DNA from: Octopus vulgaris
Lineage: Eukaryota
Length of the DNA: 64,000 nt
Assembly (NCBI GenBank): GCA_951406725.2
Contig: OX597819.1
Span: forward strand, 29,078,001-29,142,000
Direction: 5' to 3'
Below are positions 8,971-34,925 of the stretch, one piece after another. Every line of letters starts with the position of its first letter. The first letter of the stretch is position 1. The notes under the pieces were generated by a model. That model saw only the letters and a list, made by a program, of their open reading frames with translations, made no database searches and was not told the DNA's origin. The translations under genes were made by a program, and so were the position numbers.

Positions 8971-9185
8971 CACTTTCTACTATAGGTGCAAGGATTGAAA
9001 TTTTTGGAGGAAGGGACTAGTTGATTATGTAAAACCCAATGCTTGACTGGTACTTAATTTAGTGACCCTGAAAGGATAGAAGGCAAAGTTAACCTCAGCA
9101 GAATTTGTACTAAAAATGTAAAAACAGATGAAATACTACTAAGCATTTCATCCAGCACGCTAACACTTCTGTCAGCTTGCCATCT
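8971..9185 (-). mobile_element. SINE family B
   Basis: GGTACTTAATTTAGTGACCCTGAAAGGATAGAAGGCAAAG core in reverse. Confidence 0.85.
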
Positions 9186-9742
9186 ATATATTATAATTAT
9201 TATTATTATTATTATTATTGTTATCATCATAATAATAATAATAAAAAACAAATAAATGAAAGAAAATTCAAATAGCTGCAAAATATGAACAAAAAAAAAA
9301 AAAACAGCTTCTGTTTTTCAAAGAAGAAGTCAACAAATATAAAACTGCGGCTAAGGTATTGATAGCTACAAGGAGAATGGAGATAGAGAAAGAATAAAAA
9401 TGACAACCTGCAAAGCTAAGCTGAATGTGGGATTAAAATTTGTCATGGCGAGATAGATGCTGACAAGTAAAACACCTACATGGCCTATACATGACAATTC
9501 TGAACAAAGTAAAATGGATAAAGAATAATCTCTGCACAGGCTGAGAGTTGACAGAACTCAAACCTGAGAATGATCGAATTTTTTTTTCTATGGTAGCACA
9601 AAACTAAAGCCTACCACCAAAAGCATTTATTGAAGGAGAATCCAAAATGTAACTGAAGAATATATGCAAGATGTGAAGGAACACTTAGTGATGCTTCTGG
9701 TTGAGCAGTCTTAATGAAAATAGAATATATGTACAAGTATGA

Positions 9743-10108
9743 ACAACATGGTTCCGGGTTCAGTCCCACTGTGTGGCACCTTGGGAAAGTGTCTTCTACT
9801 ATAGCCTCACGGTGACCAAAGCCTTGTGAGTGGATTTGGTAGACGGAAACTGAAAGAAGCCCGTCGTATATATGTATATATATGTATGTGTGTGTGTGTG
9901 TATACGTTTGTATGTCTGTGTTTTCCCCCCCAACATCGCTTGACAACTGATGCTGGTGTGTTCACATCCCGTAACTTAGCGGTTCAGCAAAAGAGGATGA
10001 TAGAATAAGTACTAGGCTTACAAAGAATAAGTCCTGGAGTTGATTTGCTCGACTAAAGGCAGTGCTCCAGCATGGCAGCAGTCAAGTGACTGAAACAAGT
10101 AAAAGAGT
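9743..10108 (+). mobile_element. SINE family A, 5'-truncated, complete 3' tail
   Basis: Core plus internal (TA/TG)n plus tail GTGCTCCAGCATGG..CAGTCAAGTGACTGAAACAAGTAAAA; 8-bp TSD AAGTATGA at 9735 and 10109. Confidence 0.9.
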
Positions 10109-10119
10109 AAGTATGACAG

Positions 10120-10470
10120 TGCTGGGGATTTCATACAGTGTGAAAAGCACTTTTGCTGGTGCCACATAAGAAGCACCCATGCTGGTTCCATGTAACAAGC
10201 ACCTGTGTCGGTGCCACGTATAAAGCACCCGTACCAGTACCATGTGATAGGCACCCATGCTGGTGCCATGTAACAAGCACCCATGCCAGTGTGATGTGAG
10301 TAGTACCCAGTACACTCTGTAAAATGGTTGGCACTAGGAAAGGTATTCAGCTGTAGAAACCAAACCAAAACAGACGAATGGAGCCTAGTGTAGCTCTCAG
10401 GTTAGCCAGCCTCTGTCAAACTGTCCAACCTATGTCAGTATGGAAAACAGACGTTAAATGATGATGTTGA
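10120..10470 (+). mobile_element. RTE-tail element (family C) with ~26-bp tandem repeats
   Basis: About 6 copies of ATGCTGGTGCCACGTAAAAGCACCC (10150-10310), then family C tail ending AAATGATGATG. Confidence 0.8.
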
Positions 10471-10769
10471 TAAAAAGGTACAGAACAGAAGAGGATGATA
10501 TGAACAAATGAACAATCACAGCAGAGAATAATAAAATGACCATATTATTGAACAGGTATGGACAAGAATAGCAAGGCAAACTATCTACATATTATTATAA
10601 TATAGAAGAATCACATAAAGAGTTGAAAAGGTTTATAAACAAAGATTATCCATGCAGTTCTTTTACAAGAACCTGCTCTGTACTCCCTTTTAATCTCTTG
10701 TCCCTTAGCATAAAGCTGACACTCCCTCCCTTAAGGTTCATCGCTATGAGAGCTGCAGAGCAACCTTAA

Positions 10770-10990
10770 CCCTTTCGTTACCAACCCGGCTGAAACCGGC
10801 TCTGGCTCTTTAGTACAAATGTCTGGTTTTCAAAAGTTCTGAATTAAAATCTTCCACCAAACCTGAGTCATAATTTACATCCGTAACTCTAGCTTAATGA
10901 TAACGATGTTATTTTACTTAATTCTTTGTTATATTTAAAATAATTGGAAGAAACACTGAGCATCTCAAAATAAATTCAGTAACGAAAGGG
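10770..10990. mobile_element. piggyBac-type MITE
   Basis: TTAA TSD at 10766-10769 and 10991-10994; perfect 12-bp TIR CCCTTTCGTTAC / GTAACGAAAGGG; 221 bp. Confidence 0.92.
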
Positions 10991-11511
10991 TTAATAGTGT
11001 TAATGGCATGAAATAATGTGCCCAGTACGCACAGTAAAGTAGTTGGTGTTAGAAAGTATATCCAGCCATTAGAGACCAAGCCAAAGCAGACACTAGAACA
11101 CAATCAGATCCAATCAAACCCATGCATGCCGCCATGAAACATAGATGTTAAATGAGCTATCTATGGACCTACCTATCTACACACACACACATTCTTAACT
11201 AGGCACAGAATATGAGAACAAATTGTTTAAATTTCCAATTTTTTTCTTATGCCCTAATCCTTGACTTCAAATTTTTAATATTTAATAAGACGGACATACA
11301 CAACAAAACTGGTAATACTTTATAAAAGTCACTTAATGTAACAAATATAAAAATACTTAACCTGTATGATGAAAGGAAAAAAAGAGTTAAAAATTCTTTA
11401 AACATAATTCTGTGCAGATGCAACCTTTACTTTCTACCAATAACCTTTGATTTGTATGAACTCTTAACCTCCCTTTTCAACCATATGTGTGTGTGAGTGT
11501 TTAGATACATA

Positions 11512-12378
11512 CAGGGTGCAGTGAATATACTGTTGTCTACACAAAAATGAAAATAACACCAACATCTTATTCTAACAGATATATTTACCAAACTTATATA
11601 AAAATAGCTTGAAATACTAAACAATAAATTTATTCAATAAAATCCCCATTGGCTTCAACCATAGCCTCCAGACGACTTCGGAATCTTCTGCAACGCTTCT
11701 GGATGGTCTCCTTGTTTAAGTTGGTGAATGCTGCTATAATCCTTGCCTTCAGTTCATCTTCAGTGTTACAAGGAGTTTTGTTGGTCTCTCACCCAACTGT
11801 ACCCCACACATGATAATCAAGGGGGTTGCAGTCTGGGGAGTTAGGTGGCCAGATGTTAGGGGTTATGTGGTCGCAGAAATTGTCTGACAGCCGTGACTGT
11901 GTTCTACTGCTTGTATGACATGGTGCAGAGTCATGTTGCCGTACATAGGGTCTTCCAGCAGCCATCCTCATGATCCAGGGCAGCTCTACCTCCTCCAGGC
12001 CCTTGATGTAGGCCTCTGTATTGAGTGTGAGGCTGTGTGGAAAGATGAATGGAGGCATAATGTTGCCATCACTAGGGATCACTCCAAACACCATGATGTT
12101 GACTGAATGTTTAATTTTTATCACTTTCAGCACATGCACAACCTCAGATTGACACTCAAACACTCTGAAATGTTCATACTGGAGCTTCCAGCACAAATGC
12201 CAAGCAGTACAATGTGTCGTTTTCAAATTTCTGGCAGAGCTAGTTGCATCATGGTGCCATTTTTCTCACAGATGATGTCCAACTGACCCTACTATACTGT
12301 GTAGTCAACAAAATTAAAATCCAGCAAAGCACATGTGCAAAAAATACAAAATGGTGACAATTTATCCTTTGCACCCTG
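11512..12378 (-). mobile_element. Tc1/mariner superfamily DD37D (maT) element, internally deleted
   Basis: TA-flanked TIRs CAGGGTGCA / TGCACCCTG; ORF 11789-12226 has QHDSAPCH..WPPNSPDCNPLDY with 37 residues between the 2nd and 3rd catalytic D; the N-terminal part including the 1st D is missing. Confidence 0.92.
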
Positions 12379-12391
12379 TATATGTACATGA

Positions 12392-12452
<61 letters not shown>

Positions 12453-13185
12453 ACACCAGTGAAAGTTCAGACACTGTTTTCCAATATCAATGGAGAAAAA
12501 TTTTGTCTAAGTATGCAGTTGACTGTGACTACATACCACTGATGATGCTTAATGAGGCAGAAAAACACTTCTAGCATTCTCACAAGCTAGTATAGGATCA
12601 TTTTTATTTGCTTCCAATATATATATATATAGTGTTTTGCAACACAGCTTGTCCATAAGAGATATTATCTCTGGTTGAATACTGCAATAGATAATGATGT
12701 ATTTACTTTAAGTATGATACACAGATGGATACTTTAATACTTTTGTTGCATATTAAGAATATATAATACATATATGCAGATATGTACATGCACATATACA
12801 CATGTATTCACATATTTATATACATATTTAATGTTATTGATAACATGAATATGCGATACATAGATATGTTATTGTTAGCATCTAAAAGAAGATGCTTGTT
12901 TTCCATTCAATAAGGTCAAGAGAGCTTTGGTTAGGAGGAATTGATGCCATCAGATGGTATCCAATAATCCCTGGGATTTTGTTTTGACCATGAACTATAA
13001 CACCCTCCCACAGGTGGGTTAGCACAGGTGGCCAAATCAATACTCATCACCACCCTGGCTTCCAGCTTAGTTTCTCTCTCTTGCTTGCATCCACCACACA
13101 AACACACACACAATGAGAGTGAGAGAGAATAAATGAAGTACTAAGTAATATTATTGATATTCATAATCAGATACATTTCCTATAC

Positions 13186-13335
13186 ATGTAAGGTGTTCCT
13201 GAAAAATGTATGCACTCATTGAATGGTTTTAAAGTCAGTGTTTATTAAAATACATTTCATTTTCAAAATTTAATAGAAGCTACAGACAGAATGTAATTGA
13301 ATTTTACAGACACCTGTTTTCAAACTGACGACTGT
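13186..13335. mobile_element. Tc1/mariner terminal fragment
   Basis: AGGTGTTCCTGAAAAATGTATGCAC resembles the TIR at 42191 (CCGAGTGTCCCAAAAAGTGTATACAC). Confidence 0.5.
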
Positions 13336-13387
13336 TCTGATCTAGGCACTGCTTACACAAAGCAATGGAATTGCAAGTATCAAGAAG

Positions 13388-13780
13388 CATGTGCAAGTGT
13401 GGCTGTGTGGTAAGAAGTTTGTTTCCCAACTATATGGATCCAGGTTCAAACCCACTGTGTGGCACCAAGTGCAAGAGTCTTTTACAATAGCCACAGGCTG
13501 ACCAAAACCTTGCGAGTGGATTTGGTAGATGGAAACTGAAATAACCCCATCGTATATATATGCGTGTGTACCTCTGTGTCCATGTTTGTGCCCCAACCAC
13601 CCACCTACCCATTGCTTAACAACTGGTGTTGTGTGTTTATGTCCTTGTAACTTAGCAGTTCAGTAAAATGGACCAATAGGATAAATACCACGACTTTAAA
13701 AAAACAAGAACTAGGGTCAATTCTTCAAGGTGGTGCTCCAGCATGGCTGCAGTGTAATGACTTGAAACAAGTAAAAGCTA
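13388..13780 (+). mobile_element. SINE family A
   Basis: Head, core and 3' tail all match the family. Confidence 0.88.
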
Positions 13781-14104
13781 AAACATTTTGTTGTCTATTT
13801 GTACATGCTCTTGCTGACTTTTGCTGGTTTTGAACTACTGACTTTATGTTTTAAGTATTCCCATAAAAGATAGTTTAGTGTTGGGAAGTTTGAATACAGA
13901 GGGTATTCTACTGAACTTCCATATCCAATCCACCTGGTTGGCAAAATTTCAACACGGTAGAGGCCCTTATATTATTATGGTAGTGTGGAGCTATTCCAGC
14001 TTGCCGGAAATAAGACTTCAATTCCTCAAAGACATTCTGAATGCTTTGTATGACAGATTATCACAGCAAGTTCAAGTAAATAGGACCAGTCACAGAACAA
14101 TCAA

Positions 14105-14462
14105 AACAGGCATGGCTGTATGGTAAGAAGCTTGCTTCCCAACCATATGGTTTTGGGTTCAATATCACTGCGTAGCACCTTGGGTAGGTGTCTTCCACTA
14201 TAGCCTCAAGGCAACCAAAGCCTTGTGAGTGGCTATATGTGTGTGTGTGTGTGTGTGTGTCTGCTTGTCCCACCATCACTGCTTGACAAATGGTGTTGGT
14301 GTGCTTACATCCCTGTAACTTAGCGGTTCAGCAAAAGAGACCAATAGAATAAGTACTAGGCATAAAAAATAAGTTCTGGGGTTGATTCGTTCGACTAAAA
14401 TCCTTCAAGGTGGTGCTTCAGCATGGCTATAGTCAAATGACTAAAACATAAAAGAAAAGAAT
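14105..14462 (+). mobile_element. SINE family A
   Basis: Head, core, (TG)n and tail CAGCATGGCTATAGTCAAATGACTAAAAC. Confidence 0.88.
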
Positions 14463-14839
14463 AAACGAATTGTCCAATTAATCATTTTGATGATAAGGCT
14501 CCTAGTAACCATGCCATTACTCCTACTGGGATTAACACAATATTCCCCTGTACATGTGTTTTTAGGTCCCTAGTAGGTGCAATTCCTCATCATCTTCATC
14601 CAGTGTTTTAAATCCTGGTTTTGTCCTTGTTAATGGGGGGTGGCTAGATCTACCTCAATGCCATAGCAACTGCCCTCAAACTATCTCACCATCTTGCCCT
14701 GTTTTGGGCATCCTCCCTTCTCAAGCCAACCCTCCCAATCTCCTCCTCCATGTTTTCCTCTGTCTACCTCACTTTCTCGGTCCATTTACCTCACATGGTG
14801 GCAATTGTGGTGGTTAATTGAACCATTTAATTCTCATGT

Positions 14840-15110
14840 AGTGTTATCGATAGGCTTAACTCATCGTAAAGTCAATACCACCATGACTGATAGCCAATCT
14901 ACAGTGGAGAAGGCTAGCCACTGGATTTGGTTAAAAAGAGATGATGAGCGATGGCTAGAAGTATATTGAGTTCTTCATAACCAGCTGATCTAGCAAGCGG
15001 GGCCTCATATCAGTGAGGGGGGCCGGTGCGCATTGATGCCGTCGAGAGGTAGGCCCTGAAACGGCGCGCATTCTCTCCTGATGACCCCATACACTTGCTA
15101 GCTTCTGGTA
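14840..15110 (+). mobile_element. HERO-clade (RLE) non-LTR retrotransposon, 5'-truncated 3' end
   Basis: ORF C-terminus LSIGLTHRKVNTTMTDSQSTVEKASHWIWLKRDDERWLEVY* (stop 14967-14969) matches the HERO AExxSxWxWxKR..W terminus; GC/CpG-rich 3' UTR. Confidence 0.8.
15025..15092 (+). ncRNA. candidate non-circularly permuted hammerhead ribozyme
   Basis: GUC at 15041-15043; GAAA at 15058-15061; stem III GCCGU(15038-42)/ACGGC(15061-65); stem I GAGAG(15044-48)/CUCUC(15073-77) immediately before CUGAUGA (15078-84). Confidence 0.72.
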
Positions 15111-15714
15111 TATGGAGCTTTTAACTGGTAGCACTTGCATGTGCAAGTTGTTTGCAAGACACGACATTGTTGGAAAGTGTACATCTTATATACATCTTGC
15201 TAAGTACTATTTGAAAAAGCCCACTTGCTGGCCTTGATCATCTTCATTGAAAGCTTGGAGTATTCTTGTAAAGATTTTATTGAACTTTGGTCATATGTTT
15301 CTAGTACCCTTTCTTGCTTTGTGGTGCTTCATATCTGTGGCCATCTGGAACATTTCTTACAAACATTCTAGGCAGTTTTCTCTGCTTCAAGCTAAGCTCT
15401 AATTCAACTGATGGTAAGTCAGTAGGTGAATATTTGAAATTCCCTCTCATACTGTCTTTACCCTTTGACTGCATTTTCAAACTTACAAAGCACTTTTGGA
15501 TAAATTTCATTTGTTGAAAGCTTAGTCTTGCTTCCTTCATTATTTCTAATGCATAAATATAAAAAGAAAGAAAATTAACTGAGTTATCAGCTTTTAAAAT
15601 GTGTATGCACTTCTTTTTAGTTGGGGAACAAAACACTGACCACTTTGAATCTTGCCAACTAAGTAGAGTACACTCTACTGAGGAAGTCTAATAATATAGA
15701 AACATGTCCAAGAG

Positions 15715-16055
15715 TGATTGTCACCGCATTGCCTTACCAGCACTTGTGCTGGTGGCTTGTGAAATATTCGAGCAAGGTCGTCGCCAGTGCCACTGGACTA
15801 ACTTTTGTGCAGGCGGCACGTAAAAAAGCACCATTTGGGCGTGGCCATTGTCAGTACCACCAAACTGGCCCTCGTGCCGGTGGTATGTAAAAGCACCCAC
15901 TACACTCTCGGAGTGGTTGGTGTTAGGAAGAGCATCCAGCTGTAGAAACTCTGCCAGATCAGATTTGAGTCTGGTTCGCCAGACCTCAGTCAAATCGTCC
16001 AACCCATGCTAGCATGGAAAGCGAACGTTAAATGATGATGATGATGATGATGATG
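15715..16055 (+). mobile_element. RTE-tail element (family C)
   Basis: About 2.5 copies of the 66-bp unit plus conserved tail and (GAT)7. Confidence 0.88.
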
Positions 16056-16354
16056 TTCAGTTCTTTCACCAGTTGGTTTGAAAAACTAAATCCACTCCTG
16101 TATGTTGTATAAACACTTTGTTAAACTGATTTTAGTGACATGGCCCCCTCCCTTTGCTTGTTGTTTTCGAAGGGAGTTTTTTGTCCACTAATTGCTAGGA
16201 TAATCCTAATGGAAAGAGTTATTTTTAACTCACCATGTTACATATGTGAGCCCCTACTCTATCTGTATTTAATGTACAGAACACTCTCCTGAGGTACTTT
16301 CTTTCAGCCATTTCATTATTGCTATAGGCCATCAGTTATAGAAACACCTCATAA

Positions 16355-16580
16355 TGGAAGCAACAATTTCAACAGACAGCAACGAAGCATCTCTAAAAGA
16401 ACTGAGGAAAATCTGAATTTACGAAGAGTTGCAAATAGAGTTATGCAGAATATAGGGGAAACAGAGGGCTATGTCCATAATAATAGGTGCCTTGGGAATG
16501 ATATTAAAAACATAATAAATACAGACAAATACTTGAGCAACAGAATGGGGACACTAGTATGCACTCATACACACATTTCA
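16355..16580 (+). mobile_element. R4/Dong-like LINE, C-terminal RLE fragment
   Basis: SLKELRKI*IYEELQIELCRI*GKQRAMSIIIGALGMI resembles the R4 KExEKxxKYxxLxxExxRxW..PIIxGALG motif. Confidence 0.7.
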
Positions 16581-17132
16581 TAACACATATTTCATAACAC
16601 ACATTCAATACAACAGTAAAGCAAGAATAAAACACAGTACATATCTAATGAACACAGAAATGTGCATGGATAGCTAGTGAAAGAATGGAATAAAAATTAT
16701 AATGTAGGTAATAATAACAATAATAACATTAATGGCTTGCGATTTTAACAAATACTACATACATATTTATAAGTGTATGCATATATATATATATATATAT
16801 ACAAATCTATCTATCTGTATATGTATACATATCTATCTATCTATATAATCTATCTATAACTCTCTCTCTTTACATATATATATATATAGCCATCTAAGTA
16901 TCTATAAGTCAGAGAAAATATGCACTTGTATATTTGTCAATAGAGTGGGTATATAAATCAAAGTGTACAGTATTATATATCCATCCATTATGGCCAATCT
17001 TACCAATTCGGATTTGCACCTAATAGTAAGATCGTCCATAATGGATATACTGTACACTTCACTATACACACACACACACACACATATATATACATACATA
17101 CAGAGAGAGACGGGGGGGAGATAAATATAGAA

Positions 17133-34029: not shown

Positions 34030-34925
34030 GAGTAACTCCTCTACAGAAAATTTGGAGAAAGGGACCCTAAAGAAGATATGCTTAACCAATATCTAGCATC
34101 CTGCAGTACCATGGATGCTACTTTATAGCAAATCCATGAGTGGAAATGTGTAAGTGTGCTTGGGTCTAGGTACCTGGTTCAGGAAACAGCCCAGGCACAG
34201 TATAGTTGACCCAAGGTTAAACTACAATGACAAGTATTCAAGAATTACAGCTCCAGACATCTAGCTACAAGGTAGTAAAGAATATTCAGTGATTTCCAGG
34301 GAAATAGCTGCAGACACCAGTGATAATCGCAAAAACTACCCAGAGTTCATCACCAAGAATGGTTCACAACCGGACATCATCTTACGGTCTGAACAGGGTG
34401 CCAGAGTGATTATCATTTGTGCTGTATAGAAGAACAAATGAGCAAATATGGTGAGCTGGCAAAACAACTAGGGACTGAGGGTTACCACTGTACTGTGAAA
34501 CCAGTTGAAGTCAGATTGTGAAGATTCATGGCTGCATCAACCTGTTGGCTACTCAGGCAATTGAGTATCAAACACTGCAGAAGAACTACCACAATTAAAC
34601 ACTTGTCTGATGTTACTGAAAAGAGCTCAATGTGAACATGGGTGAAGAGGAATGACCAATGGACATAGTTATGGATTCCATTGGTTATTTACAGGAATAG
34701 AAGTAAGAAGAGAACTGGTTCCTTTCTCAGTCTGAGTGGCCTGGTGGGCTGACACACAGACTTGGGAAATCCCAATGGAAACAGGATTTTGAAAAGCAGC
34801 AGGAGGATACCTAAGAGTCATGACCTTGGTGGTGCCAGCTCCCACAGAGTATCAAGTATAAGGGCCGAAACACTTGTCAGATGGGAGTTCTTCCTTTGAA
34901 GATCTTCCCTCATCTTGCATTGAGT
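34030..34925 (+). mobile_element. HERO-clade non-LTR retrotransposon 3' fragment (RLE domain plus 3' UTR)
   Basis: YPEFITKNGSQPDIILRSEQGARVIII..KYGELAKQLGTEGYHCTVKPVEV..FMAASTCWLLRQL..VTEKSSM*TWVKRNDQWT* (stop 34666-34668). Confidence 0.85.

Follow-up and report, generated by a model that had tools for sequence, protein, structure and literature searches.

A probable hammerhead ribozyme with a divided stem II in the 3′ untranslated region of HERO-like retrotransposons and its probable role in forming a circular template

Downstream of the stop codon of a retrotransposon copy from Octopus vulgaris lies an RNA motif which combines a conserved hammerhead core, arranged in the order cleavage site, GAAA, CUGANGA (S-G-C), with a stem II that is split across a four-way junction. 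The motif likely cleaves itself after its GUC triplet, and the unit-length RNA thus cut from head-to-tail transcripts is predicted to re-close into a circle which would act as template for retrotransposition, a reading to which a probability of about 0.6 is assigned. That HERO as a whole is an ancient autonomous LINE-type clade, moving via circular RNA made by its own four-way-junction hammerhead and with full-length copies born head-to-tail, is a wider proposal held with a little less assurance, the balance being only slightly on its side.

The motif in the window

The window is a stretch of 64,000 nucleotides (contig OX597819.1, positions 29,078,001 to 29,142,000, forward strand). The features discussed below are the following, with positions counted from the first nucleotide of the window:

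14842..15161, plus strand: 5′-truncated copy of a HERO-like non-LTR retrotransposon, 320 bp, belonging to a young family
14842..14969, plus strand: C-terminal remnant of the open reading frame (end of the restriction-like endonuclease region), stop codon TGA at 14967-69
14990..14997, plus strand: 5′ strand of the outer helix, partner 15094-15101; distal continuation of stem IIa
14999..15002, plus strand: 5′ strand of stem IIa, GGGG, partner 15085-88 directly after CUGAUGA; covariation
15003..15018, plus strand: hairpin P, the fourth arm of the four-way junction
15019..15024, plus strand: 5′ strand of stem IIb, GGGGCC, source of G10.1, partner 15052-57
15026..15031, plus strand: 5′ strand of the stem III extension, partner 15066-71, followed by a 6-nt bulge at 15032-37
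15038..15049, plus strand: block S, with the 5′ strand of stem III, the GUC triplet and the 5′ strand of stem I; predicted cut 15043/15044
15052..15071, plus strand: block G, with the 3′ strand of stem IIb, GAAA at 15058-61 and the 3′ strands of stem III and its extension
15072..15101, plus strand: block C, with the 3′ strand of stem I, CUGAUGA at 15078-84, the 3′ strand of IIa at 15085-88 and the 3′ strand of the outer helix
15155..15161, plus strand: 3′ end of the insertion and putative start site of reverse transcription; it falls on the head-to-tail junction, about 120 nt downstream of the cut
34802..34910, plus strand: decayed motif of a second, old HERO-like family, with an open reading frame remnant at about 34300-34670
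12939..13052, minus strand: decayed motif of a third, old HERO-like family

The GUC triplet occupies 15041-43, stem III is formed by 15038-42 with 15061-65, its extension by 15026-31 with 15066-71, and stem I by 15044-49 with 15072-77. The motifs and helices named in the initial annotation (stop codon, GUC, GAAA, CUGAUGA, stems and outer helix) were all found in their places, and its description of a pseudoknotted, non-circularly permuted hammerhead in the 3′ untranslated region of a HERO-like element was borne out by clade-wide conservation, by covariation and by insertions which start at the predicted cut. Stem II had been left ambiguous there. The pairing of CCCC after the core with GGGG at 14999-15002 was retained, but the strand preceding GAAA pairs with GGGGCC at 15019-24; pairing of AGGCCC with GGGCCU at 15000-05 was rejected, as homologs keep IIa, P and IIb instead. 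The motif had also been called pseudoknotted or dimeric, of which only the first is needed, because both stem II helices can coexist, IIa and IIb forming together around a hairpin. At position 15057 the window copy has U and 26 of 30 family copies have C; the family therefore has the canonical C11.1 before GAAA, and the window copy a G10.1-U11.1 pair instead of the G-C pair of the family.

The folding energy of the window motif is ordinary (z = -1.38, as compared to -2.2 for L138 and -3.9 for L175), minimum-free-energy folding being unable to represent pseudoknots. A scan of positions 9000-17000 of the window with Rfam, accepting E values up to 10, matched no ribozyme family. A hairpin at 15132-15157, directly 5′ of the insertion 3′ end, is kept in old subfamilies and may help to mark the start site of reverse transcription; its folding is not above that of shuffles. 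As to the two older families of the window, the column majority of one passes the descriptor, and the other shows CpG-type decay and fails it. Apart from the HERO-like relics the window contains an open frame on the minus strand at 11789-12265, which resembles a fragment of a Tc1/mariner transposase.

Conservation and covariation of the fold

Relatives of the element were gathered by protein similarity, yielding 73 metagenome loci, one viral locus and 11 GTDB contigs, 85 loci altogether. Their 3′ untranslated regions recurrently contain GAAA followed 16-33 nt on by CUGANGA. The structure, consisting in order of IIa, P, IIb, the stem III extension, stem III, the cut and stem I, was read from the window and its nearest relatives. 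A strict descriptor of it matched 20 of 51 untranslated regions anchored at the stop codon, many of the misses arising because IIa begins before the stop; applied to whole loci it matched the sense strand only, and none of 2000 core-fixed shuffles. A relaxed descriptor yielded 40 matches on the sense strand versus none on the antisense strand (85 loci, 318,912 nt per strand), with 3 matches in 2280 core-fixed shuffles. In the window, the full descriptor gave a single match across both strands.

Among 3′ ends with at least 300 nt after the stop, the relaxed descriptor found the motif in 30 of 40. L172, which was missed, is a U3-A8 variant recovered by a covariance model at 44.9 bits; the matches of L145 and L146 lie further away, L212 shows part of the fold only, as judged by eye, and with the relaxed descriptor no fold was found in the 3′ ends of L144, L181, L213, L215, L217 and L218. 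Removal of three near-identical twins from the matches and addition of the window copy gave 38 non-redundant motifs, three of which (L156, L200 and L203) parse weakly. Protein identity in the C-terminal region falls to about 30% among the elements which carry the motif, and the motif is spread over their tree, a quick version built without labelled references.

Core and stems are conserved and covary in these homologs, with compensatory changes in every helix of the fold. The first four pairs of stems I, IIb, IIa and P are paired in 36-38 of the 38 motifs and those of stem III in 35-38, and stems I, IIa and P display four to six pair types per position. The first pair of IIb, G10.1-C11.1, is G-C in 36 motifs and G-U in two. 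Hairpin P is gapless on both sides in 36 of 38, yielding a gapless four-way junction. The strand after CUGANGA and the strand before GAAA, which would form a classical stem II, are paired in none of the 38. The stem III extension, which lies outside the descriptor, has a mean length of 7.0 bp as compared to 4.3 bp in shuffles, and stem IIa is one long helix in homologs.

In an alignment made with MAFFT only (22 sequences of a fish-like group) two-sided changes were seen at 25 of 29 pairs, a value equalled by none of 500 shuffles, which ignore relatedness, for a structure that was named from the same sequences. In this alignment, where IIa is misaligned in about nine rows, 86% of cells pair versus 35-42% with slid partners, and stems I and III are paired in 100% and 96% of cells. 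Older subfamilies of the octopus genome (G000) show conservation but no covariation. A search of the viral_contigs collection with the motif pattern gave no match, and a protein scan of the same collection gave one distant locus without the motif.

Two side observations concern these loci. Stretches with tRNA-like character (T-loop-like words) occur between the stop and the motif in L156, L199, L201 and L143, and in family B upstream of position 34802 of the window; ARAGORN called no tRNA in them. The GTDB loci (L209-L219) are contigs with LINE-like reading frames from several bacterial and archaeal genome bins, most likely eukaryotic contamination.

Geometry of the core

CUGANGA, GAAA and NUH are present in all 38 motifs, but these words were search criteria, so that the antisense strand and the shuffles serve as controls. 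Apart from N7 the core words are invariant, and H of NUH is never G, a rule which was part of the descriptor. The core pair C3-G8 has covaried to U3-A8 in L167, which is one of the 38, and in L172, which is not; this swap is known in natural hammerheads from the available text of PMC3088659. A15.1-U16.1 is invariant, and stems I and III adjoin the core and covary.

In a three-way junction the 5′ strand of stem II would follow directly after A9; here a four-way junction is found in its place. IIb, carrying G10.1-C11.1 and continuous with G12, would stack under G12-A9 as the true stem II, and IIa, continuous with P, would stack on P, with A9 and the end of P forming the crossing strands, and A9 leading into IIa. 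This stacking model draws on the established geometry of hammerheads and of four-way junctions. No loop-loop helix between stems I and II was identified in the motifs. A short linker connects stems I and IIb, the distance from H to G12 being 12-18 nt; by analogy with a proposal for type SGC this linker would hold the two stems together. The predicted activity is not guaranteed, because the backbone link from A9 to G10.1 of all described hammerheads is missing in this motif.

The element family

In the window relic the reading frame comprises only about 42 codons (14842-14969) of the 320 bp, and the HERO label of the initial annotation draws its support from full-length copies elsewhere in G000. 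Positions 14900-15160 of the window gave 2,399 first-look candidates in this genome, 40 of which were scored and found 98% identical, the window's own match excluded. The family unit of 3,738 bp is defined by a natural intact copy in L076 and has an open frame of 1,175 codons. The frame is open from nucleotide 16 of the unit, but an AUG does not appear in it until codon 61, about 300 nt past the cut in the head-to-tail context (L076:5490-9029); a non-AUG or cap-independent initiation is possible.

Sister copies gave a Pfam match to RVT_1 and a weak N-terminal match to zf-C2H2, and the best relatives of the protein in the PDB are R2 proteins. The single reading frame contains N-terminal C2H2, reverse transcriptase, CCHC knuckle and restriction-like endonuclease, as expected for the HERO clade; the CCHC knuckle and the PD..D motifs of the endonuclease were read and assigned by eye. 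The element is called HERO-like on the basis of reverse transcriptase motifs compared by eye with printed sequences, long motifs being common with HERO-1_BF and HEROTn and few with R4-5_BX (supplement of PMC7650587). Insertion flanks are diverse and many lie in simple repeats, indicating no fixed target and some preference for microsatellites, a trait of the HERO clade. The element copies displayed no clear target-site duplications.

Derivatives of about 1.0-1.5 kb which have lost internal sequence occur in G000 (L065, L068, L077, L082) and in contig 2 of run X1. They retain the 5′ region, the motif of the 3′ untranslated region and the head-to-tail junction, and look like non-autonomous, retrozyme-like offspring of the element. 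On contig C29 of G000, at 18.63-18.65 Mb and 20.70 Mb (L002, L004-L007, L018, L032, L033), 3′ fragments of the family have been amplified in a segmental array which also contains a 278-bp tandem repeat and inversions.

Copies starting at the predicted cut site

If some templates are nicked after C15043, a cDNA started at the 3′ end of the element is expected to run for 121 nt and then stop. A pattern with non-family letters just before position +1 gave nine matches in genomic copies, seven of which are insertions starting at +1 (one of them joined to an internal stretch of the reading frame) and two are point mutants. The same type of pattern gave three raw matches when placed 10 nt downstream and one raw match 9 nt upstream. 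A position-blind pattern for the window from -6 to +7 gave 12 matches, comprising five indel or insertion variants, one internal deletion and six true truncations; five of these six truncations fall at +1 and one at +2 within the 14 positions around the cut (P ~1e-5). The adjacent window of 13 positions had ten matches, judged from the matched text to be one truncation and nine indel variants.

In all, nine distinct copies start at +1 and all are short (about 121 nt). Every one of them (L220, L222, L223, L225-L228, L231, L235) is preceded by a T (P ~2e-4 for an AT-rich flank), perhaps reflecting a non-templated A added as the reverse transcriptase runs off the RNA end. These insertions are best read as fossil evidence, preserved in the genome, of cleavage in vivo between 15043 and 15044. 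Exact read-through of the site was found in 426 copies in G000, so that nicked templates would amount to a few percent; the ratio of 426 to nine also fits a poorly cleaving ribozyme. The element of the 3′ untranslated region is very probably catalytic (self-cleaving).

Head-to-tail copies and reading of the template

Thirty loci were fetched with the 5′ region of the unit, and 22 of them reach nucleotide 1. All 22 run on through one conserved junction into the 3′ end of a preceding unit (21 as seen by BLAST and one by 8-10 nt, with L042 and L051 representing one duplicated locus). The upstream partial unit is about 8 to 1,976 nt long, and 16 copies cross the cut site and none of the 22 starts at it. 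No copy was found to start within -6 to +7 of unit nucleotide 1, the chance of passing the pattern being about 0.4 per copy. On these grounds a template in the form of a linear unit-length RNA which begins at unit nucleotide 1 was rejected. At the other side, 74 distinct 3′ ends, all of those matched, lie within 10 nt around the head-to-tail junction. Priming at the 3′ end of a linear cut-to-cut monomer was likewise rejected, as all 74 matched ends are about 120 nt downstream of the cut; the pattern is blind to ends at the cut itself, but 426 copies nonetheless run through it.

In the 17 loci consisting of two parts, the upstream and downstream parts share 12 doubleton non-CpG variants versus 0.43 expected, and subfamily markers agree in 128 of 129 cases. 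One template was therefore usually read more than once, or the parts were converted after insertion; jumps on one linear RNA, like gene conversion of the tandem parts, could account for the shared variants too.

In metagenome loci nine motifs are followed by the N-terminal part of a reading frame, and in about 12 contigs the initial sequence recurs at the end or close to it. Contigs which are head-to-tail or close on themselves are found in many other families, and the head-to-tail arrangement thus looks clade-wide, collapsed assemblies being unable to separate circles from tandems. In L176:85-7266 two HERO-like units, 68% identical and each with its own motif, stand head-to-tail on one contig, either by a jump between RNAs of two families or by chimeric assembly. 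This locus counts against a monomer circle, because such a circle does not explain the joining of two families. A contig of 1,283 nt from run X1, which we guess to be RNA, spans the head-to-tail junction and joins up with itself. The junction is bridged as well by contigs of run X17, under another organism label; these were not counted as evidence because DNA copies would look alike. A search for ends in the contigs of four runs revealed none.

Proposed mechanism and alternative explanations

The RNA would adopt the fold of stems I, III, IIb, IIa and hairpin P that covariation indicates and would be cut between 15043 and 15044, the position marked by the genomic fossils. Full-length copies always follow a partial unit, so that read-through transcription can yield an RNA with two ribozymes separated by 3,738 nt, and cutting at both would free a unit-length monomer. 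The ends of the monomer could pair by about 29 bp (outer helix, IIa, IIb, stem III extension and stem III) and so rebuild one ribozyme, a state favouring ligation into a circle, either by the ribozyme or by a host ligase. We infer that the cut monomer probably becomes a covalently closed circle, with the same probability as the reading as a whole. The reverse transcriptase would then prime inside the RNA, at a fixed position about 120 nt past the cut, and copy round the circle, for up to 1.5 turns in the copies sampled. Such rolling reverse transcription would generate truncated copies as well as copies exceeding one unit, whose overlaps are identical, and a full-length head-to-tail copy would be ready to make the next circle. 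On a monomer left unligated the enzyme would run off after 121 nt and leave the short insertions. The initial annotation had attributed the integration of sequence 3′ of the cut to incomplete or conditional cleavage. This need not be the only cause; re-ligation into a circle is most likely in a family with head-to-tail copies.

The same ribozyme and the same cut might also operate with the ligation step left out, so that the reverse transcriptase jumps the nick of a circle held together by the 29 bp. Enzymes of the R2 type can jump between RNA ends. Under this explanation 121-nt insertions, head-to-tail copies and shared private variants are accounted for equally well, and co-folding of the two halves gains about 15 kcal/mol over the separate halves, with nested pairs only counted. 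End-to-end jumps usually add or lose bases, however, and 426 copies cross the site with exact sequence (inexact crossings being outside this count), which makes a nicked template unlikely. Slightly less likely again is a role of the motif as a weak brake or as a device for 5′ end formation or translation, the templates being mostly uncleaved, longer-than-unit read-through RNAs from tandem loci. Cleavage would then take the start site of reverse transcription from some RNAs, and gene conversion would homogenise the tandem parts. The large excess of read-through copies over starts at the cut site agrees with it, as do the aid to translation by ribozymes in non-LTR elements and RNA viruses, described in the available text of PMC13725137, and the frame open from nucleotide 16 with its first AUG only at codon 61. 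A template cut at the 5′ and uncut at the 3′ ribozyme predicts long copies beginning at the upstream cut, yet none was seen among 22, and all nine copies starting at +1 are short; moreover the upstream part should shrink with each generation when no circle is formed, whereas as much as 1,976 nt of it is found in young copies.

Two further explanations were considered. That the motif is a non-catalytic 3′ element binding protein for the reverse transcriptase, the short insertions reflecting a stall of reverse transcription, would be in line with the failure of Rfam to recognise it and with the broken A9-G10.1 link. It is very improbable, as a whole catalytic core and the C3-G8 to U3-A8 swap would be needless, as would an H which is never G (an item not independent on its own, since the NUH rule came from the descriptor), and the stop falls exactly at the predicted scissile bond. 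A dimeric hammerhead formed between two tandem units has in its favour that tandem units exist and that dimers are known for the ribozymes of Penelope-like elements (PMC4209133, text seen in part); with every helix closing inside one unit and a stem III which is long and not palindromic it hardly comes into consideration. The circular template made by a single-unit ribozyme is kept as the preferred reading.

Comparison with known systems

Non-circularly permuted hammerheads of type SGC were described by Eckert et al. 2023 (PMC10085705), and in the parts of that paper available here they resemble the present motif in the order of cleavage site, GAAA and CUGAnGA, in the presence of all core nucleotides, in the double pseudoknot and in the short linker leading from stem I into a strand of stem II. 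In type SGC, stem II joins the strand that follows CUGAnGA to the one that precedes GAAA, block C being taken as uninterrupted, whereas in the HERO-like motif this pairing occurs in none of 38 cases and an upstream strand is used to rebuild stem II via the four-way junction. The extra helix of type SGC, which binds the outer sides of stems I and II, has no direct counterpart seen in the motif; the stem III extension and IIa may stand in for it. The motif was not filed as type SGC, because neither a three-way junction nor the SGC stem II is found in it. If the present reading is true, this hammerhead architecture breaks the assumed indivisible block of CUGAnGA and stem II and explains why covariance models miss a repeat of which one genome contains 426 or more exact-match copies, and non-circularly permuted hammerheads move from anonymous metatranscriptome contigs to animal genomes with a function attached.

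Head-to-tail and more-than-unit insertions are shared with Penelope-like elements and non-LTR retrozymes (passages available from PMC4209133 and bioRxiv 10.64898/2026.07.22.740005). For Penelope-like elements Cervera and de la Peña 2014 proposed that the RNA cleaves itself, is ligated into a circle and is reverse-transcribed over more than one unit (PMC4209133), a model which becomes directly testable here since the family has young intact copies and a cut site recorded in genomic sequence. According to the text available, the ribozymes of these elements are minimal, often dimeric, circularly permuted hammerheads and their protein joins a telomerase-like reverse transcriptase to a GIY-YIG nuclease, neither of which was found in the present element; the HERO-like element is a LINE with C2H2, reverse transcriptase, CCHC and restriction-like endonuclease and has a protein of the R2 superfamily.

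The HDV-like 5′ ribozymes of R2 and other non-LTR elements, as cited in the accessible text of PMC13580325, PMC7650587 and PMC13725137, are alike in that self-cleavage frees the element RNA from a read-through transcript, and in belonging to the same superfamily. They represent another ribozyme class located at the 5′ end, and the insertions of that system end at the RNA 3′ end. In the HERO-like element, in contrast, the ribozyme lies 3′ of the reading frame, copies are head-to-tail and none starts at the unit start.

In the usual picture LINEs are primed at a linear 3′ end. If the present reading is true, a LINE with a restriction-like endonuclease can use a circular, internally primed template. 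Ribozyme products clamped by about 29 bp would be of interest for RNA circularisation and for gene insertion tools based on retrotransposons.

With the HERO clade as described in the available part of PMC4640811 the element shares a single reading frame with the expected domains, the lack of a fixed target and matching reverse transcriptase motifs. No HERO ribozyme, head-to-tail structure or circle was found in the literature searched, which covered the accessible text of PMC4640811, PMC13580325, PMC7650587, PMC10294476, PMC13725137 and bioRxiv 10.64898/2026.07.22.740005. Within that frame, the S-G-C order is already published, and the split stem II and the retrotransposon context are new.
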